From an uncultured Anaerolineaceae bacterium (GTDB lineage Bacteria > Chloroflexota > Anaerolineae > Anaerolineales > UBA4823), in NCBI GenBank assembly GCA_964354345.1, contig CAYGZL010000116.1, forward strand, positions 214-64,213: DNA of 64,000 bases, in the 5' to 3' direction. A program made the position numbers and the translations under genes. The number at the start of each line of letters is the position of its first letter. Position 1 is the first letter of the stretch. Of this stretch, positions 48,154 through 64,000 are shown piece after piece. The notes under the pieces were generated by a model. It made no database searches, had not been told where the DNA came from, and worked only from the letters and a program-made list of their open reading frames with translations.

Positions 48154-48840
48154 ATGAATATGATTGAACAAGCTGATCAACGGTTGCGTTCTTGGGTTGA
48201 AACAGTTCTGGGTTCAGTGACAGTTTCATTCGATCCGCCAAGCAACAAACCAGGGGGAGAAGGCGTCAGCTTATATTTATTTGAATTACTATCTACACCC
48301 CCTCCCAGCTCTACTAAATTATCTCCCTTACAATTTACCGTTCGATATTTAGTGACTACCTGGGCCGACACCCCAGAAAAGGCCCACCAATTGTTAAGCG
48401 AGTTGGTCCTGGCCGCGTTAGGAACTCCTGATCTGGAAGTGGAGATCGCGCCTTTCCCATCTGAAAGCTGGCTGGCAATCGGCGCCCAACCAAGGCCATC
48501 CTTCTATATAAAAACTATTGTTCGCCAGGAGCGGGTTGAACCCCTCACCCATCTGGTTGAGCAACCCCTGATCGTCGAAACTGCCCAAATTACGAGCCTG
48601 GTCGGTGAATTGTGTACCCCTGATAATATCCCGATTATGGGAGGCTACGTTGAGCTAATTGATCTCGGTTTATCTGCTTATACAGATCGTAAGGGACGTT
48701 TTCGTTTTCCCACCATCCCCTCCGGCTTGCCGCTCAAGCTGCAAGTGAAAGCACGTGGCAAGACACTGAATGTTTTGGTCAAGCGTCTGGCTACTGACAC
48801 TGATCCAATCGTAATCCAAATCGACCCGCTTAAACCTTAA
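48154..48840 (+). CDS. Pvc16/Afp16 (DUF4255)-like cap/terminator with C-terminal carboxypeptidase-regulatory-like beta-sandwich
   Basis: VSFDPP, VSLYLF, YLVTTW and W.AIG..PRPS pattern; C-terminal TDRKGRFRF prealbumin-like motif; first gene of the CIS locus. Confidence 0.72.
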   Translation: MNMIEQADQRLRSWVETVLGSVTVSFDPPSNKPGGEGVSLYLFELLSTPPPSSTKLSPLQFTVRYLVTTWADTPEKAHQLLSELVLAALGTPDLEVEIAPFPSESWLAIGAQPRPSFYIKTIVRQERVEPLTHLVEQPLIVETAQITSLVGELCTPDNIPIMGGYVELIDLGLSAYTDRKGRFRFPTIPSGLPLKLQVKARGKTLNVLVKRLATDTDPIVIQIDPLKP

Positions 48841-48964
48841 CCAGAGACAAAAGCGGAGCTTCAGTTAAGTAATTTATGATTTAACAGCCTGATCAGCCCA
48901 GCGTCATTCTTTTTTACGCTGGATATGAAAAAGATGGTCACTATCTAGTCAGAGGAGGCAAGTA

Positions 48965-50155
48965 ATGGAATATCGAGCACCAGATATCTATGTCGAAGAA
49001 GTGCCAGGTGGTCCACGTCCGATTCAGGCGGTAGGCACCAGCACAGCGGGCTTCGTCGGCGTCGCTCCCGATCCGAAAGCGCCGACCGATCAAGTCAAGG
49101 CTATCAATAACTGGACCCAATTTGTAAACAATTTTGCGTCCGGGCAAGCTATTAAATCGACTCCGTTAGCCCAGGCGGTGTTCGGTTTCTTCCAGAATGG
49201 CGGCACACGCTGTTATGTTGTGGCCGTTGGGGATGGCAAGCCGATTACCGGAAAAGGCGGGAAACGCTCTGGCCTGGATTTACTCGAAGCGTATGATGAA
49301 ATAGCTATCGTAGCTGCGCCTGGTAAAAATGACCAGGCCTCACAGGAAGCCCTGCTGACGCACTGCGAATCGTTGAAAGATCGCGTGGCCATCCTGGACA
49401 GCCCGGAGAAGGTGGAAGATTTACAGAAGCTGGTCACCGTAGCGGATAGCGGCGGCCCTGCTCCGACACCTGCGACTCCCAGTGGAGGTGTTCGCCCGCG
49501 TGATTCCAAAGGCGGTTATGGAACCTTCTATTATCCATGGATTATCATCCGCGATCCGATCACCGGAGACCAGGTCAGCGCCCCACCTTCCGGACACCTG
49601 GCTGGAATTTGGGCTCGCTCAGACTCCACACGCGGAGTTCATAAGGCTCCAGCAAATGAACCGGTGCGCGGCGCCCTGGGTGTGACCCACGCCCTCACAC
49701 GCCAGGAACAGGCTGAATTGAACCCGGCCGGTGTGAACGTGATTCGCTTCTTCCCCCGCCAGGGTGTCCTGGTATGGGGCGCGCGCACACTTGAAAAAGA
49801 CGAGTTTCGCTACCTGAATGTGCGTCGTTTGTTTAACATGGTAGAAGAGTCGATCGCCACCAGCACCCGTTGGATCGTCTTCGAGCCAAATGACCGCACT
49901 CTGTGGAAATCAATCCGGCGTGATATCACGGCCTTCCTGACCGGATTATGGCGGGATGGAGCCTTAATGGGGCGCACGCCACAGGAAGCTTTCTTCGTCA
50001 AGTGTGACGAGGAGACAAACCCACCAGAGAGCATCAATGAGGGCAAAGTCATCACCCTGATCGGGATTGCCCCAGTCAAACCAGCCGAATTTATTATCTT
50101 CCGCATCAGCCAGTTTGAGGGCGGCGTGGAAGTCCAAACCGAGGGAGGTAGCTAA
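48965..50155 (+). CDS. Contractile tail sheath protein
   Basis: YRAPDIYVEEV, TSTAGFVG, FFQNGG, YYPW, PPSGHLAG, GVHKAPANE, VWGARTL, YLNVRRLF, FEPND, AFFVKCD, APVKPAEF. Confidence 0.97.
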   Translation: MEYRAPDIYVEEVPGGPRPIQAVGTSTAGFVGVAPDPKAPTDQVKAINNWTQFVNNFASGQAIKSTPLAQAVFGFFQNGGTRCYVVAVGDGKPITGKGGKRSGLDLLEAYDEIAIVAAPGKNDQASQEALLTHCESLKDRVAILDSPEKVEDLQKLVTVADSGGPAPTPATPSGGVRPRDSKGGYGTFYYPWIIIRDPITGDQVSAPPSGHLAGIWARSDSTRGVHKAPANEPVRGALGVTHALTRQEQAELNPAGVNVIRFFPRQGVLVWGARTLEKDEFRYLNVRRLFNMVEESIATSTRWIVFEPNDRTLWKSIRRDITAFLTGLWRDGALMGRTPQEAFFVKCDEETNPPESINEGKVITLIGIAPVKPAEFIIFRISQFEGGVEVQTEGGS

Positions 50156-50610
50156 TGCCTGAGGAAACTGGAGCCCAACCGGGTACGTTCGTTGAACCGT
50201 ACCGCGTCTATAACTTCAAGCTGGTGATCAACGGGATCACCGAAGGGCACTTTACCGAATGCAGCGGGTTAGCTGCGCGCGTCCAGACAATCCGTTACCG
50301 TGAAGCCGGTCAGACACAGCTTGTGCGTACCATGCCTGGCCCAGTTGAATATGCCGATGTTACCTTGCGCTATGGATTGACCACTACCCATGAACTGTGG
50401 GATTGGTTTTTGAAATCGGTGGAGGGTAAAGCGGAAAGGAAAAATGTCTCGATTGTAATGCTGGATAGCACTGGAACGACCGAGGTCATGCGCTGGAACC
50501 TGATTGATGCCTGGCCAGCGGAATGGCGGGGAGCGCTGTTAGACGCGCTCGCTGGCGAGGCTGCGATCGAGTCGGTGCGCCTGGTTTACGACCGCCTGGA
50601 GCGGGAATAA
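50155..50610 (+). CDS. Tail tube protein (T4 gp19-like)
   Basis: YNFKL, FTECSGL, YRE, PG, VTLRYG, LWDW, RKNVSI, RWNLIDAWP, AIES; start overlaps the sheath stop. Confidence 0.95.
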   Translation: MPEETGAQPGTFVEPYRVYNFKLVINGITEGHFTECSGLAARVQTIRYREAGQTQLVRTMPGPVEYADVTLRYGLTTTHELWDWFLKSVEGKAERKNVSIVMLDSTGTTEVMRWNLIDAWPAEWRGALLDALAGEAAIESVRLVYDRLERE

Positions 50611-50669
50611 ACCGCCCTCAGGTCGTTGCTGCTGATAACCTGGCGTATCCAAACCTCCCTTAGGCTGGT

Positions 50670-52262
50670 GTGGATATGGATCGAGTCGGCTGGCGCGCGC
50701 GTTTTCTGCTGAAGCTTGGCGCAGGATTGCAACGCCTGGGTTTAGCTTTAACCGCGCGCGCCTCCCGTATACAGCCACCACCAACAGCCGGGGCTAGTTC
50801 CGGCAAAGGTAACACCCACCCTCCTGAAGACAAGTCAGGGAAGACAGATGGTCCACCAGCACATTGGTTGGCACGTCTGAAACAAGCCAACGTGCCTCTC
50901 CAATGGATCGAACGCACATCGAGACCGGCGCGAACCGACCGGTCAGTTGGGCAAGCCCGGTATGGTAGAGAAAACCTGAACCCATCGTTGTCTGCCAGTG
51001 AGTCAGGCCCGCAGCAACCACCAGCCTATCGAGTCGCTCCAACGGTGCGTTCCACCGTGCAGCCTGCGGGATCTCCACCAGCCAGATCGACCGAGCCGCC
51101 ACCCATGCAATCAAGTGCGCCAAAAATACGTCGCGCCAGCCCTGACTGGCAACCAGTGCGTTTGACACCCCGCAAACGATCCTCAACTGGCTCTGCCAAT
51201 CAGGCTCCAGGCGCTTCGCCCCTGCCTGATCGAACAGACTACGGAGTTGTACAACCGGCTAATTTTTCCCCCCGACTACCTGCCGGGGCGAAGTCATCAG
51301 AACCGCGGTTTACGATGAAACAATCCTCGGAACCACCCGAGGCTGCTCCATTATCCAATCCGTCTGGCAGAAAACGGCGGCTGGCGACCAAATTGCATCA
51401 GTTCTGGCGGAACTTCCGTAAAACTCATTCTTACGCCAGCACCCACTGGTCAGCCAAGGCAGCAATCTCACCCACCAGGTTGCCTACCCTTTCACGAGCA
51501 GAGGAACATACTATTCCAGCAAGCTCTGCGCGACGACCGCAGCCAGAGCCAACACCGGTAGTAATCAGGCATAAGCATTCTGAAATAGATGTGGGATTAA
51601 CGCCACAGATAGGGGAGAACCATCCTGTAGTAGCTCAACATCTCGCCCAACCGGTGCGGGAGAATCCTCCCGTAGTAGCTGATGGTTTCGATGCACAGTT
51701 GCGAGAGAACTCACATGGATTAACTGAGGGGCTTATCCCACAGGCGCCGGTTATAACTCCGAAACCAGGCAGCCACCCAGGCTGGCCATCCCCGACAAGC
51801 AATGTAAATCGCTCTCCGAACCTGACTCTGCCTGAGCGGCCGAGTCGTCCTGTGGAACAGCCACCGATGGAGACAGGCAGCTCTCAACCGCTTGAACCGG
51901 TTCTGCCCGAGTTCTCTCCCTCCCCTCCGCGTTCCGCCCAAATAACCGTACCGGATTGGCCAGGTCAGCCAAAATCAAGTGAGGCGACTGTCGCTCCTCA
52001 TCCAGATTGGTCGCCCAATCACTCAATGCGACCCAAGCTCATGCCATCCGACCAACCAACGCATGCGAGCCAATTGCCAATCACACCCGAACCCGCGCAA
52101 TCCTTCTCACCAGAGGGACCATGCGACGCCTGGCCGGAACTGTTAGAGACATCCGTTGGATCAGAGCTAACTGAAACATGGTCTGAACCTTTTAATGAAC
52201 GACGCAAACAACACCTGGTGCAGGAACAGCAAGGTCGAAGACCAGAAGAGGTGGAGGGTTAG
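50670..52262 (+). CDS. Pro/Ser-rich, probably disordered CIS-associated protein
   Basis: Fills the gap between tube and tube initiator in the same orientation; PPAHWL near the N-terminus and WPEL near the C-terminus; start codon uncertain. Confidence 0.6.
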   Translation: MDMDRVGWRARFLLKLGAGLQRLGLALTARASRIQPPPTAGASSGKGNTHPPEDKSGKTDGPPAHWLARLKQANVPLQWIERTSRPARTDRSVGQARYGRENLNPSLSASESGPQQPPAYRVAPTVRSTVQPAGSPPARSTEPPPMQSSAPKIRRASPDWQPVRLTPRKRSSTGSANQAPGASPLPDRTDYGVVQPANFSPRLPAGAKSSEPRFTMKQSSEPPEAAPLSNPSGRKRRLATKLHQFWRNFRKTHSYASTHWSAKAAISPTRLPTLSRAEEHTIPASSARRPQPEPTPVVIRHKHSEIDVGLTPQIGENHPVVAQHLAQPVRENPPVVADGFDAQLRENSHGLTEGLIPQAPVITPKPGSHPGWPSPTSNVNRSPNLTLPERPSRPVEQPPMETGSSQPLEPVLPEFSPSPPRSAQITVPDWPGQPKSSEATVAPHPDWSPNHSMRPKLMPSDQPTHASQLPITPEPAQSFSPEGPCDAWPELLETSVGSELTETWSEPFNERRKQHLVQEQQGRRPEEVEG

Positions 52263-52267
52263 AAAAT

Positions 52268-53041
52268 ATGGAACGTGTAGCTTTCTTGATCGAAGAAACA
52301 GGTGAAAGAATTGGTTGTATGCTCAATCCTGAAGGGCTGGTCGTCCGCCGGGTAGCCGGTGTGCGTAGAGCAATTTCTATTAACGGGCAGTTAAGCGGGA
52401 GCGGGATGAATGATGATCCATTGTTATACACCGGCGGTGGATATACCGAGGTACAACTCGATTTGCTGTTCGATGTAACCCTGGCTGGTTCCTCGATTCA
52501 AACCGAAGATGTGCGAGACCTGACTGGTCCTCTCTGGCGTCTGGCAGAAAATGCACGGAAAGATTCGGGGTACGGTCGCCCGCCACTGGCACGCTTTGTC
52601 TGGGGGAAGGCATGGAATGTGTTGGGTATTGTCACCTCCGTAGCTGAACGGTTTGATCGCTTCACTTCATCTGGAGAACCCCAACGTTCCTGGTTAAGGA
52701 TGCGCTTTGTACGAGTCGATGAACCAGAAACAGATCTCACTGAAGAGGCTGCCATGCGGGGGGAGTCCTCTCGATCCTCCAAGGCATTGGCGACGGCGCT
52801 TGAATCGCTCCCAGAGGAGGTTCCGCTGGAAGAGGCGGAAAATCCCGAGGTCGACGCTCACGAACTTCATGGAGACGGCATCCAGGGGGAAAATTTACCA
52901 GAATTATCCTACCGGTACTATGGCGATCCAACTTTATGGCGTTGGCTGGCCTGGTTTAACCGGGTTATCCATCCCTTGAAGATGGCAATCGGGAGTGTGT
53001 TGCGCATTCCGCCATTACAATTGCTAAGAAAAAGGCTATGA
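52268..53041 (+). CDS. CIS tube-initiator (Afp7-like) with LysM-like C-terminal domain
   Basis: LNPE, LDLLFD, PPLARFVWG, FTSSGEPQR; C-terminal LSYRYYGDPTLWRWLAWFN...GSVLRIP. Confidence 0.85.
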   Translation: MERVAFLIEETGERIGCMLNPEGLVVRRVAGVRRAISINGQLSGSGMNDDPLLYTGGGYTEVQLDLLFDVTLAGSSIQTEDVRDLTGPLWRLAENARKDSGYGRPPLARFVWGKAWNVLGIVTSVAERFDRFTSSGEPQRSWLRMRFVRVDEPETDLTEEAAMRGESSRSSKALATALESLPEEVPLEEAENPEVDAHELHGDGIQGENLPELSYRYYGDPTLWRWLAWFNRVIHPLKMAIGSVLRIPPLQLLRKRL

Positions 53042-54570
53042 CTCCTGTAAATACCCTGCCACAACTATCTCTTGAATTAAACGATTTGCCAGTCCCGGTG
53101 AATTTCTACCGCCCCTTAACCGGTGTCTATGTCCGGCAGGCATTAAACGCGCCGGCACAATGTGAACTGGTTTTCAGTGATCCACCCGGTTCCTCCGAAG
53201 AAATGGATCAGATTGCTCAACAACTCAGTCCCGGGACACATTTTCGCCTTAAGCTGGTGGGTATTGATATCCCCCTTTTCATCGGCCAGGTGACAGGCAA
53301 CGAGTATACCTATCGCCCGGACTCCACTCGAGAAATACGCATCCGTGCTTACGATTTGCTCCACAGCCTGCGCAAACGCCAACAAGTTCGCGCTCACGTT
53401 CAGGTGACACCAGTCGAGTTGGCCACTGAAATGGTGAGTACACTTGGGTTAAGCGTCCAGGCAGCGCTAAAAGGGCCTTTATATCCGCGGGTGATCCAAC
53501 ATGCGCAATCCGACTATGACTTGTTATGCGAATTGCTGGATCGCTGTGGCTTATATTTCACTCTCCGCGATGATGTATTACACCTGTTGACCCTGGAAGG
53601 TTTAGACGACCAGGTTGATTTACGCCTGGGTGAAACGCTTCTGGAAGCGCGCCTGGAAATTAACACCGAAACTGCCAGCAGTTCAATCCGTGCCCAAGGT
53701 TGGGATCCTTTAGGCGTTGAACCATTCGAAGGTCAGAAAAATCAACCCCGCTCCGGTCGGAGTGTGGAAGCGGCGGTTGATGCACAATCAGTTGGCGGCG
53801 ATGGTGAACGCTGGCTGGTCGGGGAGGATGCGGTTAATTTCGATCATATCGAAGCCCTGGCCCAGGCAGAATTAGATCGTCGTGCGGGAAACGAGGTGAC
53901 CATGTGGGGGGTCGCCCAAGGTAACCCGTCTCTTCGACCTGGGACGCGGATCGAAATCGCAGGGGTAAATCAATCCTTCTCAGGCAAGTATGTTTTGACC
54001 AAGGTCACCCATACTATTGACACGCGATCCGGCTATATCACCCAGATTTCCAGCCAACCACCAGGCGGCCTCCGCCATTCCCAAAGCGCGATTGCAGCAT
54101 TGGGAGTGGTAACTCGAGTGGATGATCCTGAAAAATTCGGCCGGGTAAAAGCCTCATTGCCGGCCTATAACAACGTGGAAACCGAATGGATGCAGGTCAT
54201 TCACCCGGCAGCCGGAGTCAACAAAGGTCTGGTGGCACTGCCAGGGGTGGAGGATACCATATTGATTTTATTCACCCATGCGGATCCAGCGCGCGGCGTG
54301 GTGTTAGGTGGTTTTTACGGACCATTTGCTCCTTATGATCCGGGAGTGGACGGGAATGCTGTCAAACGATACTCGCTGCGCACCCCTCAGGGGCATCTGA
54401 TCCGCCTGGATGACGAGAAGCAAGTACTGCGCTTTGAACACAGTCGCGGAAGCTATGTCGAGATGACGCCCGATAAGGTCACCGTTTATGCGGCTGCCGA
54501 TCTTGAAATCAGCGCCCCTGGAAAACAGATCGTCATCCAGGGTGCAGCTATTGACTTTCGTAAGGCTTAA
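53038..54570 (+). CDS. VgrG-like spike (gp27 hub plus gp5/gpV OB-fold, Afp8-like)
   Basis: QSDYDLL, GNPSLRPG, SGKYVLTKVTH, GVVTRVDDPEKFGRVK, LPGVED, VVLGGFY, GHLIRLDD. Confidence 0.92.
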   Translation: MTPVNTLPQLSLELNDLPVPVNFYRPLTGVYVRQALNAPAQCELVFSDPPGSSEEMDQIAQQLSPGTHFRLKLVGIDIPLFIGQVTGNEYTYRPDSTREIRIRAYDLLHSLRKRQQVRAHVQVTPVELATEMVSTLGLSVQAALKGPLYPRVIQHAQSDYDLLCELLDRCGLYFTLRDDVLHLLTLEGLDDQVDLRLGETLLEARLEINTETASSSIRAQGWDPLGVEPFEGQKNQPRSGRSVEAAVDAQSVGGDGERWLVGEDAVNFDHIEALAQAELDRRAGNEVTMWGVAQGNPSLRPGTRIEIAGVNQSFSGKYVLTKVTHTIDTRSGYITQISSQPPGGLRHSQSAIAALGVVTRVDDPEKFGRVKASLPAYNNVETEWMQVIHPAAGVNKGLVALPGVEDTILILFTHADPARGVVLGGFYGPFAPYDPGVDGNAVKRYSLRTPQGHLIRLDDEKQVLRFEHSRGSYVEMTPDKVTVYAAADLEISAPGKQIVIQGAAIDFRKA

Positions 54571-54573
54571 AAG

Positions 54574-54909
54574 ATGAAGTGGCTCACCGAGGATGCCAGG
54601 CTCGTTTGTGCTCACCGGGGAGTGGTACAAAACCACCCAACCCAAAATCTGGTGACAATAGAAGGCCGGCGGGTGTTGGTGGACAACAATCCTGAAGGAC
54701 GAACCATTGGTGGTTGTCCGCAACCCGTGCCAGCCAGTAAGCCCTGTACTTTAACCTATAAAGTGGTTGAGGGTTATTCCGAGCTGCTCCGCATCGACAG
54801 CCAACGAGTGTGTCTGGATACGGTGCGGGGGAAGACTGATGGCCTACCCGCCGGCGCATTCGATTATTATGTCGACCAGCCAGGACAGGGTTTGGTGGAG
54901 GAATCATGA
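54574..54909 (+). CDS. PAAR-like/DUF4280 spike tip protein
   Basis: 111 aa after the spike gene; LVCAHRG, GCP, KPC and IDSQRVCL Cys/His pattern. Confidence 0.72.
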   Translation: MKWLTEDARLVCAHRGVVQNHPTQNLVTIEGRRVLVDNNPEGRTIGGCPQPVPASKPCTLTYKVVEGYSELLRIDSQRVCLDTVRGKTDGLPAGAFDYYVDQPGQGLVEES

Positions 54910-55337
54910 AAAATCCACGCTACCGCGCCTGGAAGTTTATCCATCCAGATCTGGATATCAGCCAGGGACAACCCGGGTTGAGTCTCTCACCACTCGGTGG
55001 GATCGCGATGGTGGAAGAGGCTGAGTCTGTGAGACAAGCTATCTTTCTCCTGCTTTCTACGCGTCCTGGGGAACGGGTGATGCGGCCAACTTATGGTTGT
55101 GAACTTTACAGCTTAATCTTCTCGCCCAACGATGATACCACCGCCGGTCTGGCGATTCATTTCGTCCGGCGCGCCCTGGAGCGCTGGGAACCGCGCATCC
55201 AAATCCTGCGCCTGGATGCAGAACAGAATCCAGAGAATCCAGAGTTATTAGATATCTTCCTGGAATACCGGCTGCGCGCCACGCAGCGCCAGGAACAAAT
55301 TCAATTCTCATTCCGCTTGAGCGGAGGGAGGTCGTGA
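54906..55337 (+). CDS. gp25/GpW baseplate sheath initiator (Afp9-like)
   Basis: SVRQAI, LSTRPGERVMRPTYGC, ALERWEPRI. Confidence 0.95.
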   Translation: MKNPRYRAWKFIHPDLDISQGQPGLSLSPLGGIAMVEEAESVRQAIFLLLSTRPGERVMRPTYGCELYSLIFSPNDDTTAGLAIHFVRRALERWEPRIQILRLDAEQNPENPELLDIFLEYRLRATQRQEQIQFSFRLSGGRS

Positions 55338-57946
55338 TGGCGGCTAACGATTTTAAGTCTCCCAGGCTGGACGACCGAACCTTCGACCAGTTACTGGCAG
55401 ATGCCCGGCGTATTATCCAGGAAAAAGGAACGAATTGGAACGATCTGTCCGCCAACGATCCAGGTATCGTGCTGTTGGAATTGTTCGCTTACCTGACCGA
55501 AGTAATGCTCTACCGGCTAAACCGGCTACCCGAAAAGGCCTATGTGGAATTCTTGCGTCTACTTGGGGTTACCATCCAACCCTCCTCAGCAGCCGCAGCC
55601 AACCTGACCTTTTACGTTGATCAGCCAGCAGCTAAAATAATCGAAATTCCTCTCGGAACGCGGGTCACTGTCGAACGCAGCGGTGGGGGCGGCCAGGAAC
55701 CACCTGTATTCGTCACGCTGCAGGATGGTGTTATTAAAGCTGGTCAGACGGATGTGACCTTGCTGGCGCGTAACTGTGATCAGGTAGATGGGGAGCTGGT
55801 TAAAAAAGGCACCGGGCAACCTGGTCAGGTGGTGCGCGTAATGCGCCCCCCGATTATTGCCGATACTGGTGATCGGACAGACCTGATCGTTACAACGGAA
55901 GCGCATGTCGATGAACTGAATGAACGGATTGAAGCGCGTGAATATCTCGGTAAAACATATCGGGTCTGGCGCCGGGTTGAAAATTTCACCAGCCTGGGCG
56001 ATGACCGTTTTACCTACATGGTCGATCGTAATAGTGGCCTGATCCAGTTTGCCCCTGCCGTAGACCTGGGAGAAGGGGCACAGCTATTGGCTGAAGCGCC
56101 TGGTCTGGATCGCGAGATTCGCGTTTGGTATCGCCGGGGGGGAGGTTCGCAAGGGAACCTGGCTGAAAATACACTTACGGTGATGAAAGATCCGATCAAA
56201 GGAGTCAAAGTCACCAATCACCAGCGCGCCACGGGAGGCAAAGCCGCTGAAACCCTGGAAAATGCACTGCTGCGGGGACCGCTCGAGTTACATTCACTCC
56301 AACGTGCCGTGACTGCTAAAGATTTCGAGCTTATTGCTCGCAAATTCAGTTCACGCGCGGTTGTACGCGCCAAAGCCTTTACCCGGCGGGATTTGTGGAA
56401 ACACGCCCAACCTGGGCAGGTCGAAGTCATGTTGGTGCCAGATATTCCTGTGGAAGAGCGAAATAACGTTACCATCGAATTGCTAACCGCCCACCAGAAC
56501 GAAGCCGTCCGTACGCAAATCCAGAAAGCGCTGGACGAGCGACGTCCCCTCGGCACCACCTGTCAGGTCAGTTGGACACGCTACAAACCGATGAAAGTCC
56601 GCACGCGGATTGTCGTACAGCGTGAAGAAGATAAAGACGCTATTCAACGACGCATCACCCAACGTCTTAACCAGACAATCACACCCATTCCGACAGATTT
56701 CAACTCGACTGGTTGGCCCTTCGGTCAGGCTTTACGCGCCTCGAATGTCTATGATATCGCTCTTGCTGAACCTGGTGTTCGTTGGGTTGATACCGTCCGG
56801 TTGGTGGTTGAGGAAGCTCCCAACAAGGATGTTGGAGTGATCGCAATTGACCATAGCCAACCGAAAACCTGGTATGCGAGCAGTGGGTCCGTCTTATTCC
56901 GCTCGCTCAACCACGGTGACGGTTGGGAAGCCATCCAAAAGTTCCCTGGAAAAATTCTATCCATCCAATCCCACCCTCAGGTGCCGGGCTTACTTGCTTT
57001 GGCGTGTCAACAAGCTGATGGTACAGGAACTGGCTTATTTTTCTCGGCAGATTGCGGCGAAACCTGGCCAACGAATCCTGATTTCGCTCCCGAGTTCACT
57101 ATCTGCGGGACCGCCTGGACTATGCGCGAAGGTGTGCCAATCCTTCACCTGGCGACCGATGTTGGATTGTATGAAGTTGCCCGTCAACCGGGTGCCACAC
57201 CCATTCCAATCCGGTTGAATACCGACACCGATGTTCCCAAGAGTTTTTATGCGGTAACTTCCTTTACTGACATTCAGGGCATTGTCTATGTCGCCCTGGC
57301 CGCGCAAGGTCAGAAAGGCGTTTATCTGTCTCGGCGAGGTGGATTGCGCGACTCCTTTAGCCGTTTGAAAACCGGCGCATTGCCTGCCAATGAGGATATT
57401 CGCGTTCTGGGCGTGCAAGCCATCGGATCACAATCCTTCCTATGGGCTGGCTCAACCGTGACGGACAGTGGCGTAGGAAATGGCGGCTATCGCTGGCAAC
57501 TGCGCGGGATGGAAGATCCTCCGGAAGGATGGATATCCTTCAAGACGGGTTGGCAGGCGGGTAGTTGTAAAGGATTGGCGTTTCATGGCGTTGAAGTTTT
57601 CGCCGCCTCGCATCGCCTGGGTGTGCTGCGCATCGCCGATGGCACCGTAGCCGGGGGACAGTGGGAAGCGCCCCAGATTACCTGTGGTCTACCCCTGCGG
57701 GAGACAACCACCCAAAAGCTCTTCCATCCGGTAGACACTGTTGCAGCGACTGCTGATCCTGAAAGATTGCTGGTGTTGGCTGGTGGTATTGAAGGCGTGT
57801 ATTCAACGGACGATGAAGGGAAGAGTTGGAGCGAATCCTCTCAAACAGAATTCATTGAGAAAGTCACGTTGCCCGAGACCAGCCTGTTCGTCTCCAAGGA
57901 TCATGAGGTGACCATCGTCAGGGAGGGCGAAGATGAAACAGGCTGA
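55334..57946 (+). CDS. Baseplate J/gp6-like wedge (Afp11-like) fused to a C-terminal Asp-box beta-propeller
   Basis: PRLDDRTFDQL, DPGIVLLELFAY, YRLNRLP, GTGQPGQ, YRRGGGSQGN, ATGG, RAVTAKDFE, GWPFG; after about aa 495 the motifs SLNHGDGW, SADCGETW and STDDEGKSW. Confidence 0.9.
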   Translation: MMAANDFKSPRLDDRTFDQLLADARRIIQEKGTNWNDLSANDPGIVLLELFAYLTEVMLYRLNRLPEKAYVEFLRLLGVTIQPSSAAAANLTFYVDQPAAKIIEIPLGTRVTVERSGGGGQEPPVFVTLQDGVIKAGQTDVTLLARNCDQVDGELVKKGTGQPGQVVRVMRPPIIADTGDRTDLIVTTEAHVDELNERIEAREYLGKTYRVWRRVENFTSLGDDRFTYMVDRNSGLIQFAPAVDLGEGAQLLAEAPGLDREIRVWYRRGGGSQGNLAENTLTVMKDPIKGVKVTNHQRATGGKAAETLENALLRGPLELHSLQRAVTAKDFELIARKFSSRAVVRAKAFTRRDLWKHAQPGQVEVMLVPDIPVEERNNVTIELLTAHQNEAVRTQIQKALDERRPLGTTCQVSWTRYKPMKVRTRIVVQREEDKDAIQRRITQRLNQTITPIPTDFNSTGWPFGQALRASNVYDIALAEPGVRWVDTVRLVVEEAPNKDVGVIAIDHSQPKTWYASSGSVLFRSLNHGDGWEAIQKFPGKILSIQSHPQVPGLLALACQQADGTGTGLFFSADCGETWPTNPDFAPEFTICGTAWTMREGVPILHLATDVGLYEVARQPGATPIPIRLNTDTDVPKSFYAVTSFTDIQGIVYVALAAQGQKGVYLSRRGGLRDSFSRLKTGALPANEDIRVLGVQAIGSQSFLWAGSTVTDSGVGNGGYRWQLRGMEDPPEGWISFKTGWQAGSCKGLAFHGVEVFAASHRLGVLRIADGTVAGGQWEAPQITCGLPLRETTTQKLFHPVDTVAATADPERLLVLAGGIEGVYSTDDEGKSWSESSQTEFIEKVTLPETSLFVSKDHEVTIVREGEDETG

Positions 57947-58499
57947 GATCGCACTCTTGTTGCCAGAAATATTTCAGCGAACAGTCGCGGGGACTCGCGA
58001 TGGGAAAGCTTCACCGATTGATTTCCTGTTGGCAGTCATGGATGCGCTACACGCACCCAGTGAAGCAATCCTGGAAAACCTGGATCGATACTTCAATCCA
58101 TATCAGGCGGATGATAATTTTGTCCCATTTTTGGCGACATGGGTCGATCTGACAGAACTACTCCGCGAGACGCCTGCCGTATTTCAGGGACAGGCAGACC
58201 AGGGCATGTGCTCAGCACCCCTGGCGACTGGCATGGGGCGGCTGCGCGAATTGGTCGCGGCCGCGGCATATCTATCCCAATGGCGAGGCACCGAGAAGGG
58301 TTTACGCCGGTTTCTTGAAACCGCCACCGGTGTAAGCGGTTTCATAATAAAGGAGCAAATTATCGAGAATGGCCAGGAAAAACCTTACCACTTACAAATC
58401 GAAGCTCCCAAGAGCACGGAGCAATTTCGCCCCCTGCTCGAGAAGATCATTGATTTAGAAAAACCCGCCTATGTTACCTACCAGTTGGAATTTGTTTGA
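57933..58499 (+). CDS. Phage tail protein I/gp7-like baseplate component (Afp12 position)
   Basis: LLPEIFQ, LDRYFNP, FVPFLATWV, WRGTEKGLRRFLETATG, IIDLEKPAYV. Confidence 0.85.
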   Translation: MKQAEIALLLPEIFQRTVAGTRDGKASPIDFLLAVMDALHAPSEAILENLDRYFNPYQADDNFVPFLATWVDLTELLRETPAVFQGQADQGMCSAPLATGMGRLRELVAAAAYLSQWRGTEKGLRRFLETATGVSGFIIKEQIIENGQEKPYHLQIEAPKSTEQFRPLLEKIIDLEKPAYVTYQLEFV

Positions 58500-58558
58500 G
58501 TCCAGTTTTATGAACACTCGTATGAGGTTTACCCCACCATGTCAAAGGAGAAAATATT

Positions 58559-58852
58559 ATGGACACCATCCACAGTATCATTAACATCCTGGGATTCATT
58601 TGCGGCCTGGGGGCTGGTATTTTACTGATTGTCCTGGGTATAATTAACAAAAGCGCTGCCGCAATCGCGTTTGGCGTCTGGGCATTAATCAGCGTACCCC
58701 TGGCCTGGTTTAGCGGAGCCAAGGCCGAGCCAAGCGAAAATCCATTCAAGTTGAAATTAGGCGCCAAGTTCAAATATGTACCGGATTTCGTCTGGGTGAT
58801 CATTGCTTTGTTATTCGTTGGTGCGGTGGTTATCGCGATCGTACTGCGGTAA
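58559..58852 (+). CDS. Small membrane protein (about 3 TMs), unknown function
   Basis: AAGGAG RBS; three hydrophobic segments; first gene after the baseplate genes. Confidence 0.7.
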   Translation: MDTIHSIINILGFICGLGAGILLIVLGIINKSAAAIAFGVWALISVPLAWFSGAKAEPSENPFKLKLGAKFKYVPDFVWVIIALLFVGAVVIAIVLR

Positions 58853-58915
58853 TTCTTATTTCCTGGATCCGAATCAGACCTATCGTCAAGGAAAAGGATA
58901 GTATTTGCTATCAAC

Positions 58916-60238
58916 ATGACCAGCCAATTTAACCTCACCGTCGAAAGCAACACCGTCGCGATCAACTCGCAAGGGTCAGGGAAAATCACCTTTACCGCTT
59001 TCAATGCCAGTGGGAGAACTGCGCGCGGGCGCGCGAATATGCAGACAGTTCCTGAAGGACAGCCCCACCTGGCCTGGTTAACCATCTCCGGCGATGCCGA
59101 AAGAGAGTTTCCCATCGCCGGAGTGGACCAGTTCCTTGTCCAGGTTAATGCACCAAAAAATGCTGCGGTAGGGCAGTATACCTTCCGTTTGAACCTGGTG
59201 GAGGTCGCCAATCCAGATGAGACTTTTTCGGAGGGACCAACCGTCAGCTTCAAGATTAGTGAACGGAAAAGGGATTTGAGTCTCTTTCCCTGGTGGATCC
59301 TGCTGGCATTATTGGCAGGGATTATCTTAATCGCGGGGATCATCTACCTGGCCACGCGCCCGCGTACGGTTGAGGTGCCAAACGTAATAGGTTTACAGGT
59401 GGACGATGCCCTATCAACACTTGAAGCCGGCTCCTTACGTCCCCGGCAGGGCGCTGAGGAATTCAGCGCCAATGTTTCGAAGGGCGCCGTGGCGCGCACC
59501 GATCCTCAGGCCAAGACGAAAGTAGACAAGGGCAGCCGCGTCGAGTGGTATCCTTCTCTTGGCGCACAACCTACTCCTACCCCAACCGCCACTCCAATGC
59601 GCCTCACAGCCACCCCTACCGCTACTCCTACACCCAACCTGCTCGCCAGTTGGACAATTTATGAGGATCGGATAGCAGCCATACGCCACCCCAAGGATTG
59701 GTTGCCGATGCCATGCCCGATGTGTGTCGGTTTCAACGACAGTGGTTCATCGTTGTTGGCTGTGGTTTCAAACAAGGATCTGTACGGCAGCCTGGAATAT
59801 TATTTCCACGGGGTTCTACCGGAGAAAGTCAATTATCAAGCAGGTGCATTTTTCATGGCTTTTGTTTTCCAGGACAACACACTGGGATTTTCATCGGCCT
59901 TTCCGACTGACTGGTTAAAGATGTTTTTAATGAATTCCCCCAGCGGTTATTTCCCCTGGCATTTCTTTATATTTGGTCCCGATGGATACGGATCTTTCGA
60001 TAATTATGTCAAGATCCAGGAAGAAAGGTCGTTAAACCTGAGCGGTTACACGGCAGCCCAGTGGCTTCTGGAAGGCGAGGATCGCCTGTCTGGTCAGACT
60101 CTTCTGATTCAGGTGACAGCGATTGTCTTTGGCTCGCGTAGTGAACGCGCCTACCTGATTGCGGCTGCTCCAGGCGATATATTCGAGAAATACCAAAGTA
60201 CATTTACCTTGCTGGTCGAGAACTTTAAGTTGAAATAG
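58916..60238 (+). CDS. Bitopic protein 1: Ig-like N-domain, TM, PASTA, Thr-Pro linker, PsbP/DcrB-like C-domain
   Basis: FPWW plus hydrophobic helix; PASTA pattern VPNVIGLQVDDALSTLE...GAVARTDPQA.TKVDKGSRV; PTPTPTATP; C-domain begins WTIYE...IRHPKDW and ends FTLLVENFKL. Confidence 0.8.
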   Translation: MTSQFNLTVESNTVAINSQGSGKITFTAFNASGRTARGRANMQTVPEGQPHLAWLTISGDAEREFPIAGVDQFLVQVNAPKNAAVGQYTFRLNLVEVANPDETFSEGPTVSFKISERKRDLSLFPWWILLALLAGIILIAGIIYLATRPRTVEVPNVIGLQVDDALSTLEAGSLRPRQGAEEFSANVSKGAVARTDPQAKTKVDKGSRVEWYPSLGAQPTPTPTATPMRLTATPTATPTPNLLASWTIYEDRIAAIRHPKDWLPMPCPMCVGFNDSGSSLLAVVSNKDLYGSLEYYFHGVLPEKVNYQAGAFFMAFVFQDNTLGFSSAFPTDWLKMFLMNSPSGYFPWHFFIFGPDGYGSFDNYVKIQEERSLNLSGYTAAQWLLEGEDRLSGQTLLIQVTAIVFGSRSERAYLIAAAPGDIFEKYQSTFTLLVENFKLK

Positions 60239-60307
60239 AGACTACAACCAGTGTCCTTTACCGGAAATGATGTAAAATAAGAACAAATCAAAAAACAGGA
60301 GGGCGCC

Positions 60308-61720
60308 ATGGCCGGAACCTTCATTATTACACCGCTGGCAAACCAGGCAATCCTTGCCAAGGGTGAGGGAAGCGCGTCTTTTACCGTTACGAATAATAGC
60401 GGTCGAGCGTTGCGTGGCCGGGCGTTGTTAGAGACTGTACCGGCTGAACAGTCTCACAAGGATTGGCTGAAGCTGGATCGGGAGGCCGAACAGGAGTACG
60501 ACATCGCTGCAGCAGCGCAAATTAACGTGGCGATTAAAGCCCCTGCTGGAACTCCGCCAGGCAAATATACTTTCCGCCTGAATATACTGGATGTCAGCAA
60601 TCCAGACGAGGGTTTATCCGAGGGTCCGACGGTCACAATCATCGTCCCGAAAGAAGGAGATGGAGGCCATTTCCCCTGGTGGATCATCCTGGTTGTCCTG
60701 GCTGTGCTGGCTTTGATCGGCGGATTAATTTATTCCTTAACCCGTCCAAAAGGATCCATTGTGCCAGCGTTGATTGGGAAGCCGGTGGAGACGGCCTTAG
60801 CAATGCTAGACAAAGCTGGCCTGCAAGTTACCCCGCTGTATGCGGATAATCCGGAGACGAAGGGGAATGTGTTCGCCTCCACTCCGCAAGGCGGAGATGG
60901 CGTGGTGAAGAACGCGCCTGTGATCTTGTTCATCTCCAATGGACCGACGGCAACCTTCACAGTGACCCCGCAGTTCACCCCCACGCCAACCTTCACCCCT
61001 TCCATCACCCCCTCGCCGACTCCTCACACCGGAATCTTCCAGGCTAACCAGGACCGGTTTTGGTGGTCAGAAGCATGCCCGCAAAATTGCCCCGATTTCG
61101 CTAAAGGTGATATGCTGACCATCTACCGGTACAGCGAGTTTGAAATAGCTCCGAAAAATAAAATCAACTTACCCGAATTTATTCAGCCTAATCTTGAAGT
61201 GATTCCTACTGCCACGAATACACCCTCCTCGGGTATGGTACTTATCAAACCGGATATATCTATCCTTAAACCTTTAGTTCCTGCGGATACAATCACAAAA
61301 GCCACACTTATCAGCCCTTTTAGAAGAACGACGACCTGGTCAACGGCTACGGTTCTTTTCGATTTGACGCAAATTCCACGCCGGGCTAACATCGTGTCAG
61401 CCATGCTAACTTTATCTGTAGTTGATTCAGATGGCGCAGATCCGAATATATCTGTTATGTTGGCAAGCGCGCCATGGTCCGAGTCGAGCAATGATGCCCC
61501 GCCGTGCAATCAAACTGGAAAAGTCCTTATTAAAGTAACTTCCAGCGGCACCCAGAATTGGGATATCAGTAATTTACTGGCCAGCCAGATTGCTGGGTCT
61601 GGACAAATTAACGGCTTCTGTTTGACCATGGAAACCAGTGGTTCGACACGTAGTTTTGCCAGCCGGAACAATTCCAACACAAAGCTACGACCAACATTGA
61701 CTGTGATCTATTATCCGTAA
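60308..61720 (+). CDS. Bitopic protein 2: Ig-like N-domain, TM, PASTA, Thr-Pro linker, DNRLRE/CBM96-like C-domain
   Basis: FPWW-TM; VPALIGKPVETALAMLDKAGL...GNVFASTP...VILFISNG; C-domain FDLTQIP...IVSAMLTL...WDIS...FASR...RPTLTVIY. Confidence 0.8.
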   Translation: MAGTFIITPLANQAILAKGEGSASFTVTNNSGRALRGRALLETVPAEQSHKDWLKLDREAEQEYDIAAAAQINVAIKAPAGTPPGKYTFRLNILDVSNPDEGLSEGPTVTIIVPKEGDGGHFPWWIILVVLAVLALIGGLIYSLTRPKGSIVPALIGKPVETALAMLDKAGLQVTPLYADNPETKGNVFASTPQGGDGVVKNAPVILFISNGPTATFTVTPQFTPTPTFTPSITPSPTPHTGIFQANQDRFWWSEACPQNCPDFAKGDMLTIYRYSEFEIAPKNKINLPEFIQPNLEVIPTATNTPSSGMVLIKPDISILKPLVPADTITKATLISPFRRTTTWSTATVLFDLTQIPRRANIVSAMLTLSVVDSDGADPNISVMLASAPWSESSNDAPPCNQTGKVLIKVTSSGTQNWDISNLLASQIAGSGQINGFCLTMETSGSTRSFASRNNSNTKLRPTLTVIYYP

Positions 61721-61760
61721 GTCGAAACTTACTGTTCCCCGATGAAGGAAGGAGAACGTC

Positions 61761-62942
61761 ATGGCAGATATTTTCACCATCACACCATTGTCGAACCAGG
61801 TAACCCTGAACGCCAACCGCCAGGCAACCGTCGTGTTTACTGTCACCAATAACAGTGGTCGGATGGTGCATGGCCTGGCCTCGCTGGCGACTGATCCGGA
61901 AAAACAACCCCATGCAGCCTGGCTAACGATCGAGGGTGAGGCTGAACAAGAATACCCTATTGCCGGCCTCATCCAAATCAAGGTGAATATCACCGTTCCT
62001 GCAGAAACCAGCCCAGGCACGTATAACTTCCGGCTTAACATGGTGGATGTCAGCAATACGGATGAAACCTTTTGCCAGGGGCAAACAGTAACGATCGTCG
62101 TCCGTGAGGTTATCATCATACCCTGGTGGAAAAAGTTCTACCCCTGGTGGATCATCGTTGCAGCAGTGATCGCTCTGGTGTTAATTATCCTGCTCGTGAT
62201 TTTATTAACCCGAAAAAAAGAGGTAACCATTCCACCTGTCGTGGGTACTCCCGTGGGAGTGGTACAAACCCGGTTGACTGAAATTGGCTTGACAAATTCA
62301 ACCACCAACAATAATCACACCGAGGCCAGCGGTATTGTCTATGATTCGAATCCAACCTCCGGCACGAAGGTTCCCAGTGGATCGAATGTTGAATTATTCG
62401 TCTCCAAAGGACCAGGCCAGGTTACGGTAAGGTTTAAAGCCGTCCAGGACAAATTCTGGTACCCGCCTTATGTATTATGTATTTTCGGTTCATGTCCTGA
62501 CTTTAACTATGGTCCGGATTTGCAACTCTTTAGGAGCGCGACAGGAACTGGAGGCTCTGGGTTAGTTGCTATTCAATTTATGTTAAATTCCATCCCAGCC
62601 GGAGCGACTATTCAATCAGCCTCACTACAATTATCTGTTACGGATTACAAGGGGATTAATCCAGGGGTTACCGTTTCACTGGCTTCTTCATACTGGTCTG
62701 AGGGGGGGGCGACGGCGCCAAATTGCTCAACCGTAAACCAGACCAGTATTTCAGTCGGCCCGGCAGGTGATTATGTTAAGTGGGATGTCACCGCACTGGT
62801 AAACTACAAATACCATAATCCCGCGGTAAATAACGGATTCTGCCTGACCATGAACTTCGGAGATTCTTTGAGATCTTTTGGCAGCCGGGAGAATCCCAAC
62901 CCCAGAGCCCAACCAGTACTGTCAGTTACCTATACTCCTTAG
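61761..62942 (+). CDS. Bitopic protein 3: Ig-like N-domain, TM, PASTA, DNRLRE/CBM96-like C-domain
   Basis: YPWW-TM; IPPVVGTPV...GIVYDSNPTSGTKVPSGSNVELFVSKG; C-domain IPAGATIQSASLQL...WDVTALV...FGSRE...PVLSVTY; AAGGAG RBS. Confidence 0.82.
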   Translation: MADIFTITPLSNQVTLNANRQATVVFTVTNNSGRMVHGLASLATDPEKQPHAAWLTIEGEAEQEYPIAGLIQIKVNITVPAETSPGTYNFRLNMVDVSNTDETFCQGQTVTIVVREVIIIPWWKKFYPWWIIVAAVIALVLIILLVILLTRKKEVTIPPVVGTPVGVVQTRLTEIGLTNSTTNNNHTEASGIVYDSNPTSGTKVPSGSNVELFVSKGPGQVTVRFKAVQDKFWYPPYVLCIFGSCPDFNYGPDLQLFRSATGTGGSGLVAIQFMLNSIPAGATIQSASLQLSVTDYKGINPGVTVSLASSYWSEGGATAPNCSTVNQTSISVGPAGDYVKWDVTALVNYKYHNPAVNNGFCLTMNFGDSLRSFGSRENPNPRAQPVLSVTYTP

Positions 62943-62953
62943 GATTGTTCTAG

Positions 62954-63499
62954 ATGAGTCTAAAAACACTAATTATTATCCTGGTTGTGCTGGGGTTGCT
63001 GTTTGCTGCCGCGGTTCTGGTTGGTGCATCGCGACAGGACGATCCCAATGCAAAGCCAACCAATAGCTGGCAGGGAAACCTGATCAAAAGCTTCGGTAAC
63101 CTGATCCCCAAGGGAAAAGTTGGCGCGGACGATGTACGCAGGGCGATTGATCCGAGTTGCTGGAGACCGCAGGAACAGAGAATGGTCATTCAAAGTGGGT
63201 TGGTCTGTCTGTATTATTTCAACCCATCCAAAATGCCACGCCTGCTGCGCCTGAGTCTGACAGAGGGAAATTCAGCTCAGCTATTACTCAGCCAGCCGGT
63301 AAACTCCGATGGTGATATGGTCACCGCCAAGCCAGTCCTCGACCAGGGGAACGAACCGCCAACGGTTGATCCTGTTATTAATGGGCAAACGATCCGCTTT
63401 AACCTGTACCGGCAACAGAAAGACACCGATACGGTCAAATTGGTTGTGCAATGTAATGCTGCGCCCGGAAAGAATTGTAGTTTAACCTTCAAAAAATAA
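62954..63499 (+). CDS. Membrane-anchored or secreted hypothetical protein with Cys pairs
   Basis: N-terminal hydrophobic helix; four Cys; starts 11 bp after the previous stop. Confidence 0.7.
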   Translation: MSLKTLIIILVVLGLLFAAAVLVGASRQDDPNAKPTNSWQGNLIKSFGNLIPKGKVGADDVRRAIDPSCWRPQEQRMVIQSGLVCLYYFNPSKMPRLLRLSLTEGNSAQLLLSQPVNSDGDMVTAKPVLDQGNEPPTVDPVINGQTIRFNLYRQQKDTDTVKLVVQCNAAPGKNCSLTFKK

Positions 63500-63531: not shown

Positions 63532-64000
63532 CTAGGTGCGTGTAAGCGCCTTGAGGATGGCCGGAATCGCGCCAATCAACAGGATTATCAGCCAGATTAC
63601 GCCCAGGATCGCCACCACAATGGCCGCGATGGCATCGGTAATGCTGACCAAAAAGATCGGCACGATGCCCCAAAGAAAGCTGATGATAATGTTCCCGAGA
63701 AATGAGCACAAGATCATCATAATCAAGGCTTTTCCCCGCAGGAAGTGTTGTTGCGCCAACAGGATGCAAACCACGATACCGATCTTCATCAACAACAGCA
63801 CGCTCAGGATGGCATTGCCACCGCCGCGGTTAAAGAAAGCAAACATGATAAAGTAAGCGATCGTGCCGAACGGAACAGCTAATAACAATCCGACCATCAG
63901 CAGTAACTTAACGATGGCCAGGATAATCATGAGGATCGCGGCGATGAGGAGCAGGATCGAGAATATGACTGTGACGCAGCCCTGTAACCGCCCGTGAATA
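63532..64000 (-). CDS. Polytopic membrane protein, 5' end beyond the window
   Basis: The frame stays open upstream of 63930 to the window edge (IHGRLQGCVTVIFSILLLIAAIL...); at least 5 hydrophobic helices; convergent with the CIS operon. Confidence 0.7.
   Translation of the reverse strand, partial: IHGRLQGCVTVIFSILLLIAAILMIILAIVKLLLMVGLLLAVPFGTIAYFIMFAFFNRGGGNAILSVLLLMKIGIVVCILLAQQHFLRGKALIMMILCSFLGNIIISFLWGIVPIFLVSITDAIAAIVVAILGVIWLIILLIGAIPAILKALTRT

Follow-up and report, generated by a model that had tools for sequence, protein, structure and literature searches.

Introduction

How cytoplasmic contractile injection systems (CIS) meet the membrane, and what triggers their firing, is an open question, and CisA is the sole adaptor characterised so far. 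In Streptomyces coelicolor, cisA (SCO4242) lies just downstream of the baseplate genes, and its product, which is inserted N-in/C-out and is predicted to contact Cis11, is needed for firing (PMC12237407). Here we describe a CIS locus from an uncultured Anaerolineaceae bacterium (Chloroflexota), found in a stretch of 64,000 nucleotides (nt) of assembly GCA_964354345.1 (contig CAYGZL010000116.1, positions 214 to 64,213 of the forward strand), referred to below as the window. The window corresponds to G000:C116:214-64213, where G000 is the source genome (4.02 Mb, 98% complete). Its positions 48154-63499 hold the genes of a CIS core followed by five genes for membrane proteins, three of which share an N-terminal module, the N-domain, placed ahead of a transmembrane (TM) helix. 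On balance, we favour the view that these three proteins are CisA/Cis13-like membrane adaptors of a distinct, Streptomyces-type (IId) cytoplasmic CIS sub-lineage in Chloroflexota.

Two further systems are relevant to this reading. In Anabaena, Cis13 (All3316) consists of an N-terminal baseplate-binding domain and a TM helix at amino acids (aa) 122-154; that domain is contacted by the extended C-terminus of Cis11, and without the TM the particles are no longer anchored (PMC8894136). In Chloroflexota, CIS have already been placed in lineage IId with those of Streptomyces, and intracellular particles were shown (PMC12998442). In PMC12998442 (2026) close cisA homologues are given as absent from Roseiflexus, and the available text of that paper has no occurrence of “PASTA” or “transmembrane”. 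In full-text literature searches, no paper came up that connects PASTA domains with contractile injection systems, and the top-ranked matches described no cytoplasmic-CIS adaptor besides CisA. The structures of the S. coelicolor CIS baseplate (9GTP) and cap (9GTS), which recur in the matches below, are both from PMC12237407.

Results

Three paralogous membrane proteins are encoded downstream of cis12

Every gene in 48154-63499 is on the + strand, with short gaps between genes (11-69 nt from cis12 through the five membrane genes). Core genes were identified with Pfam and NCBIfam, and PHROGs and PDB were used for further matches. The three candidate adaptor genes are found at 58916-60238 (paralog 1, 440 aa), 60308-61720 (paralog 2, 470 aa) and 61761-62942 (paralog 3, 393 aa). 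All three products start with the N-domain, continue with a TM helix that opens with FPWWI, and carry a PASTA domain after it (E-value, E, of 8e-13 in paralog 1). Beyond PASTA, paralog 1 has a Pro/Thr linker and an unclassified C-terminal domain, paralog 2 a linker and a CBM96/DNRLRE domain, and paralog 3 a CBM96/DNRLRE domain (DNRLRE_dom, E 5e-20). Identity between the three is 31-34% for the whole proteins and rises to 43-54% in the first 118 residues.

An AlphaFold2 (AF2) model of paralog 2, built on a 124-sequence alignment, placed residues 1-115 in a beta-sandwich with a predicted local distance difference test score (pLDDT) of 92-98, followed by a helix at 124-144, the PASTA domain at 149-210 (pLDDT 85-96) and a disordered linker at 218-325. 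Taken alone, the N-domain gave sub-threshold Pfam matches only, the best being NEW3/NPCBM_assoc with 19.3 bits for a cut-off of 24.4. Its profile had no meaningful match in PDB, and no 7b5h chain was retrieved at E up to 10.

A fourth, orphan paralog is encoded far from the CIS in the same genome (G000:C57:96988-98340, − strand; L008:6989-8341). It is 451 aa long, with an N-domain, a TM, PASTA and a beta-rich C-terminus.

To place these proteins in a family, an exhaustive profile search was run with the N-domain and TM (149 positions). It yielded 2503 cluster representatives at E <= 1e-3, 652 of them at E <= 1e-30. A word-indexed search had given 4 homologs; the idea that the family is rare was dropped in view of these 2503, and of the fact that the word search had missed the window's own paralogs. 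In all 150 matches listed, the N-domain starts within the first 27 residues. PASTA was present in only 62 of the 124 family members scanned, which rules it out as the family-defining part; CBM96, Laminin_G_3, PD40, B_lectin, PG_binding_1/3, SBP_bac_1, DUF11 or CARDB were found in the remaining ones.

A preliminary description of the window, made from its letters alone, had proposed five membrane-protein genes forming an array of interchangeable, PASTA-containing membrane adaptors or sensors. The five genes are real, as judged from sequence and from the Pfam matches to PASTA and CBM96, and three of them do carry PASTA, but the defining module is the N-domain with its TM, not PASTA. Interchangeability of the ectodomains is borne out by the variety of Pfam domains, their binding to wall or glycan being predicted from family membership.

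Several features bear on the topology of the family. None of 124 members has a hydrophobic N-terminal stretch, and a single TM was found in 103 of 105. The N-domain is free of Cys in 114 of 124 members, and Cys makes up 1.2% of the ectodomains, which belong to families that are typically extracytoplasmic. The stretch formed by the TM and PASTA aligns to positions 328-442 of the PknB_PASTA_kin profile, that is, to its TM-to-PASTA junction. Lack of a hydrophobic N-terminus, the Cys pattern, the single TM, a weak charge bias around it and the PknB-like junction together favour an N-in/C-out topology, as far as it can be deduced from sequence.

The N-domain co-occurs with an extended Cis11

The Baseplate J protein of the locus, Cis11 (55334-57946, 870 aa; matches to Baseplate_J and TIGR02243), has a C-terminal extension at ∼495-865, adding ∼370 aa. 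In an AF2 model based on a 9-sequence alignment, residues 482-863 were all beta, and the pLDDT of 10-residue blocks was mostly 66-90. An F510_1955-like match was obtained for residues 506-617 (E 6e-10), and two Asp-box-like motifs were seen. The extension is likely a beta-propeller, by prediction.

Whether homologs of the three paralogs accompany CIS genes or lie mostly elsewhere was the point by which the preliminary description proposed to judge them, and it was examined in several sets of genomes. Among 40 close relatives (24 from the host's family and 16 from its order) the N-domain was found in none, whereas sheath homologs were present in 10; these counts rule out that such adaptors generally accompany the CIS of close relatives. 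In a sample of 400 other genomes of the host phylum, 3 had the N-domain. When Cis11 was used as a query on the same 400, 66 genomes gave a Baseplate_J-like match (a count that includes the unpublished G265, used for this count only), and residues 8-868 were matched by the same 3 only, the other 63 matches stopping by about residue 518. In a sample of 400 other Acidobacteriota genomes, the N-domain was found in 2. A full-length match to the C-terminal part of Cis11 was obtained only in those 2 and in the genome on which this analysis is centred; six further genomes of this second-phylum sample gave weak, partial matches to it (E 3.5e-8 to 9.8e-6). For the two phylum samples together, the N-domain is present in 5/5 genomes with an extended Cis11 and in 0/795 others.

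The position of the genes is also constrained: in 13 of 14 carrier genomes or contigs, adaptor genes are found within ∼1.3 kb after cis12, in 1 to 5 copies. In the three host-phylum genomes with the N-domain, the genes that encode it follow cis12, and the cluster is colinear with that of the window from cap to cis12. In G747 and G795, they adjoin cis12 by coordinates. A pattern built on the alignment of the four paralogs and scanned over genome contigs recovered 7 loci, from Anaerolineae metagenome-assembled genomes (MAGs), a Promineifilaceae MAG, Acidobacteriota, Blastocatellia and two “uncultured” records, and in 6 of them the genes were 25-1270 nt after cis12, as 1-5 tandem copies. Metagenomes gave two loci: a full cluster holding 2 copies, and one that begins at the contig end. 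The homologs thus follow cis12 in nearly all carriers, and their co-occurrence with one type of Cis11 is strict, an outcome that speaks for the preliminary description.

The content of these loci varies. In L018 and L020 the ectodomains are swapped for DUF11 and Laminin_G_3. In L021, a 117-aa open reading frame (ORF; L021:9397-9750) lies between cis12 and five tandem adaptor genes; its product starts with an FPWWI-type TM and has no N-domain, and may be either an adaptor cut short or a small partner in its own right. The genome of L022, G441, is a high-GC MAG in which a pair of extended-Cis11 and Cis12 genes stands at the start of contig C2.

When 17 sheath rows were placed in a tree, the 9 loci of this type grouped together with a support of 98/96. 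This group spans Chloroflexota and Acidobacteriota and is apart from the CIS of same-family relatives.

The core is closest to the cytoplasmic CIS of Streptomyces

The sheath (Cis2) is encoded at 48965-50155 (396 aa; Phage_sheath_1, E 1e-20; Phage_sheath_1C, E 2e-21) and is the only one in the whole G000 genome. Its best PDB relatives are those of S. coelicolor (8bky/9gtp, E 3.5e-108; 8bl4/9gts, E 2e-105), and the sheaths of AFP, PVC, the Anabaena 7b5h structure and other CIS matched it at E 1e-53 or weaker. Cis11 matched the 652-aa chain 9gtp_1K over residues 209-490 only. The gpI-like wedge protein Cis12 (57933-58499, 188 aa; Tail_P2_I, E 5e-7) matched the 190-aa chain 9gtp_E (E 2.5e-4). Since the sheath, Cis11 and Cis12 are all nearest to the S. 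coelicolor CIS, the core belongs with the Streptomyces cytoplasmic type, an affinity that is read from the best PDB matches of these three proteins; for the particle encoded in the window, a cytoplasmic localisation is predicted.

Other core components were found as follows. The inner tube (Cis1, 151 aa) is encoded at 50155-50610 (Phage_T4_gp19, E 3.3e-36), the tube initiator (Cis7-like, 257 aa) at 52268-53041 (CIS_tube, E 3.7e-12), the VgrG-like spike (Cis8, 510 aa) at 53038-54570 (Phage_base_V, E 4e-17, and Phage_GPD), and the gp25-like sheath initiator (Cis9, 143 aa) at 54906-55337 (GPW_gp25, E 2.4e-25). The C-terminus of the tube initiator matches Anabaena All3321 (chain 7b5h_AK, E 2.4e-5). 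The first gene, 48154-48840 (228 aa), probably encodes a Cis16-like cap, as judged from a Pvc16_N match of 25.5 bits, under the cut-off of 27, and from weak similarity (E 0.013) to chain 9gts_0A, the S. coelicolor cap; L019 and L024-L026 have counterparts of 34-43% identity in syntenic position. A 111-aa protein (54574-54909) occupies the PAAR/Afp10 position. It is kept in 10/10 related loci, with 46-62% identity, and has no match in Pfam, NCBIfam, PHROGs or PDB.

The preliminary description had listed a co-oriented CIS core running from cap to gpI-like protein into the membrane genes, with neither lysis genes, tail fibre, TssJLM-type envelope complex nor recognisable toxin. The layout is confirmed by the Pfam and NCBIfam matches and by the common strand. 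As for the list, the sheath, tube, initiator, spike, gp25, baseplate J and gpI-like proteins hold, while the cap is only probable, and the label of PAAR-like tip given to the 111-aa protein is unconfirmed in the four databases searched, with nothing but its place in the cluster and its conservation speaking for it. A Chloroflexota host is upheld, since G069, which is of the same phylum as G000, recurs with identical contig, coordinates and score in the phylum sample centred on a Promineifilaceae (Chloroflexota) MAG. The absences were also found: no lysis, fibre, TssJLM or toxin family was recognised among the 19 ORFs of 42353-63499 or the 10 scanned upstream ORFs. The idea of a complete CIS devoid of fibres and nearest to the cytoplasmic CIS of S. 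coelicolor is therefore upheld by the sheath, Cis11 and Cis12 matches. Hallmarks of extracellular CIS such as Afp, PVC and AlgoCIS (fibres, ATPase, toxin cargo and lysis genes) were not found in the scanned ORFs. Pfam families of type VI secretion systems (T6SS), namely ClpV-like, TssBC and TssJLM, are absent among the ORFs of the locus, and the sheath is of the phage/extracellular CIS type.

A Cis15-like ATPase was searched for in particular. ATPases of 645-725 aa adjoin the CIS in three relatives (L009, L012 and L015). None was found in the window locus or in 9 related loci of the sub-lineage, and the three ATPases, used as queries on the G000 genome (98% complete), gave only generic AAA matches of 26-29% identity.

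Further membrane proteins and neighbouring genes

Two more conserved membrane proteins accompany the adaptor genes. The first, m181 (62954-63499, 181 aa), is the product of the last of the five membrane genes and has an N-terminal TM anchor and conserved Cys pairs. It belongs to no Pfam family. Positional analogs are present in all 9 loci inspected; a 4-seed m181 profile, applied to a set of 25 sequences, found 5 further analogs (L017, L018, L019, L021 and L023; E 2.8e-11 to 2.2e-4) and did not recover the positional analog of L020. Because of its Cys pairs, the sequence suggests that m181 lies outside the cytoplasm. The second is a 251-aa multi-TM protein encoded on the − strand, convergent with the operon, at 63535-64290 (L031:746-1501), so that its gene runs past the window end at 64000. 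It was found in 10/10 related loci, with 40-50% identity over its full length, its gene closing the operon in some and immediately preceding the cap gene in others, and matches no Pfam family. The CIS module includes this protein, beyond 48154-63499.

The product of the first of the five membrane genes (58559-58852) is hydrophobic, 97 aa long and classed as a membrane protein from its sequence. No Pfam family was found for it, and a homolog was seen in L017 only (36-38% identity).

Between the tube and the tube initiator, 50670-52262 encodes a 530-aa Pro/Ser-rich, low-complexity protein without family in Pfam, NCBIfam or PHROGs. In related loci, a 319-516-aa gene product occupies this slot, with only ∼50-80 N-terminal residues alignable. 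A length determinant or a cargo are both possible functions; being probably disordered, the protein would be an odd tape-measure candidate.

The locus is flanked by housekeeping genes, those upstream encoding, among others, a TPR protein, NDK, a radical SAM enzyme with DUF2344, an ABC transporter and an RpoD-like sigma factor. Downstream of the multi-TM gene and past the window end, there is a 528-aa open frame at 64414-65997 in window coordinates (L031:1628-3211). The contig ends within this frame, which matches no Pfam family and contains an internal start that is hydrophobic and lipoprotein-like.

Discussion

We read the three window paralogs as membrane adaptors or anchors because of the slot of their genes after cis12, the spacing between their N-terminal domain and TM, and the lineage-specific extension of Cis11 that co-varies with them. 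The membrane part of the system would then be made of three modules: one to five bitopic adaptors, each with a cytoplasmic beta-sandwich, a TM and an exchangeable ectodomain (PASTA, CBM96/DNRLRE, DUF11, Laminin_G or others); the small, Cys-bearing, membrane-anchored m181 protein; and the 251-aa multi-TM protein. Particles would assemble in the cytoplasm. The adaptor N-domains may then attach to the periphery of the baseplate, with the Cis11 extension as the likeliest site, and docking would tether and orient the baseplate at the cytoplasmic membrane, much as proposed for CisA in Streptomyces and for the TM-bearing Cis13 in Anabaena. On the outer side, ectodomains would bind peptidoglycan or lipid II in the case of PASTA, or surface glycans in the case of CBM domains, and could serve either as wall anchors of the complex or as sensors of wall damage, which would license the machine to fire into the envelope of its own cell or through it. 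Gene content, family relations, domain architecture, synteny and the strict co-occurrence are observed; binding of adaptors to the baseplate, cytoplasmic localisation and the nature of the trigger are predictions of this scheme, and what points to a contact with Cis11 is only the co-variation with its extension.

A number of observations weigh against this scheme. Roseiflexus CIS particles are described as unattached in the cytoplasm (PMC12998442), and CisA itself was not part of purified S. coelicolor particles (PMC12237407). Scans for promoters and terminators came out at chance level (13 found for 14.3 expected, and 21 for 19.3). The positive-inside bias of the family is weak: K/R within 15 aa number 2.16 before the TM and 1.89 after it, with an excess before it in 49 members, an excess after it in 25 and equal numbers in 31. 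Adaptor genes also exist away from CIS loci: the orphan copy on contig C57 sits between a dihydroorotate-dehydrogenase-like/PFOR region and a V-type ATPase operon, another orphan was found in G442 (G442:C3:262509), and G441 has 16 copies on 16 contigs, none of them at most 10 kb after its cis12. G441 nonetheless encodes an extended Cis11, Cis12 and sheaths. The genomic context is known for ∼14 carriers, all of which were found by similarity to the window, and with a family of this size most of the 2503 members could therefore lie elsewhere than in CIS loci. Finally, the sheaths of these loci form a single clade, so that one block transferred a few times may account for the co-occurrence. The association between CIS and adaptors is strict, but it does not stand for many independent events. 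Simple hitch-hiking is nevertheless countered by the fact that the linkage persists through changes in copy number, ectodomain and gene order.

Alternatively, the locus could encode an outward-firing machine resembling a T6SS, in which the adaptors, m181 and the multi-TM protein build a stable envelope complex on wall or glycan, and firing occurs on contact with neighbours. Three conserved membrane components do accompany the CIS, their ectodomains are of predicted wall- or glycan-binding families, and no lysis genes were seen in the scanned ORFs. T6SS membrane complexes also bear peptidoglycan-anchoring domains. We nevertheless consider this unlikely: the closest matches of the sheath, Cis11 and Cis12 are those of the cytoplasmic Streptomyces CIS, the locus and, with the queries used, the genome gave neither a TssJLM-like family nor a recycling ATPase of the ClpV or Cis15 kind, no effector was recognised, and the particles of published Chloroflexota relatives were free in the cytoplasm (PMC12998442).

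The N-domain could also act as a loading tag, its proteins being cargo or effectors whose TM and ectodomain are delivered into a target membrane. A constant N-terminal module combined with variable C-termini and copy number is indeed reminiscent of polymorphic effector arrays. We regard this as very improbable, for the C-terminal domains are binding modules (PASTA, CBM96, DUF11 and Laminin_G) rather than enzymes or toxins, an internal TM helix and sizes of up to ∼1000 aa fit tube loading poorly, and the layout matches that of known anchors. Least probable of all is an extracellular CIS released by lysis next to unrelated wall-biogenesis or sensing genes, a reading to which the orphan and dispersed adaptor copies and the commonness of PASTA proteins as wall sensors lend something, and which is disfavoured by the strict co-occurrence with one Cis11 type (5/5 against 0/795 in two phylum samples), by an adjacency maintained despite rearrangements, by the lack of fibre and lysis genes in the scanned ORFs and by the far weaker matches of AFP and PVC sheaths.

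Returning to the membrane-adaptor reading, a bolder version of it can be imagined, which we put forward tentatively. The adaptors would be “inside-out tail fibres”, a modular receptor array whose beta-sandwich plugs into the Cis11 domain and whose swappable outer domains read the state of peptidoglycan, lipid II or surface glycans, so that different envelope insults could each license firing. Regulated cell death or the breaking of filaments would then have a programmable trigger, horizontally shared between Chloroflexota and Acidobacteriota, in which two more membrane proteins without a known family take part and the usual assembly ATPase does not.

For the question of how a cytoplasmic CIS meets the membrane, the locus offers a set of candidates backed by the conservation of their gene neighbourhoods: a folded baseplate-side domain outside Pfam, a matching Cis11 extension, exchangeable ectodomains and two conserved membrane proteins. 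With them, recognition between adaptor and baseplate can be tested directly, as can signal input. That the ectodomains are exchangeable also suggests that input specificity can be re-wired, which is of interest for CIS engineering.

Among known proteins, PASTA kinases (PknB/Stk1) share with the adaptors an alignable TM-to-PASTA junction. In contrast to them, the window proteins have no kinase domain, and NF033483 scored 47-50 bits for a cut-off of 450; that the adaptors are themselves such kinases is ruled out, as only the TM and PASTA stretch was matched.

Comparison with Anabaena shows a likeness of layout: a domain of ∼115 aa is followed by a TM helix (124-144 in the window protein), and Cis11 is extended (495-865). 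The sheath match is much weaker (7b5h_AO, E 6e-49) than with Streptomyces. Moreover, Cis13 ends soon after its TM, whereas the window adaptors carry large ectodomains, and the Anabaena CIS is anchored to thylakoids, whereas the membrane for the window CIS would be the cytoplasmic one.

With the S. coelicolor CIS, the locus shares the best solved relatives of its sheath, Cis11 and Cis12 and the lack of fibres, and its adaptor genes, like cisA, are directly downstream of the baseplate genes. The adaptors differ from the CisA type, as judged from the description of CisA, in that their N-terminus is modelled as a folded beta-sandwich of ∼115 aa instead of a largely unstructured region, and their C-terminal domains are PASTA/CBM96 instead of SBP-like. 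There are three tandem paralogs and an orphan in the window's genome, Cis11 has a C-terminal domain in addition to what the 652-aa S. coelicolor protein contains, and the dedicated Cis15-like ATPase of the Streptomyces type was not found in the window locus or the 9 related ones. The CIS of Roseiflexus and other Chloroflexota and Deinococcota resemble the one described here in phylum and in kinship with Streptomyces lineage IId, and they are intracellular, as is predicted for the window system.

Closer relatives of the host provide the last comparison. One of them, G022, has another CIS type (L014:646-9444), with two sheath genes, a 746-aa Cis12 with NHL repeats and, at the fibre position, three large proteins of 844, 644 and 676 aa devoid of TM helices. 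In two genomes of the host's family, G002 and G003, Cis12 is fused to an N-terminal FHA domain (L010:1149-5237 and L011:654-4933), and the gene after cis12 encodes a bitopic FHA-TM-Peptidase_M23 protein of ∼1000 aa, which also has SH3; in G002 the gene after that one encodes, to judge from its sequence, a likely Ser/Thr kinase. This layout suggests a phospho-threonine-dependent coupling of a wall hydrolase to the baseplate. Unlike the window locus, related loci without the likely propeller have a Cis15-like ATPase alongside. The cytoplasmic module in G002 and G003 also differs, being FHA, as does the ectodomain, a peptidoglycan hydrolase. What is common to both is a bitopic protein with a wall-directed ectodomain encoded directly after cis12, and its presence in the same slot, with other domains, suggests that such a protein is a recurring solution in these systems.

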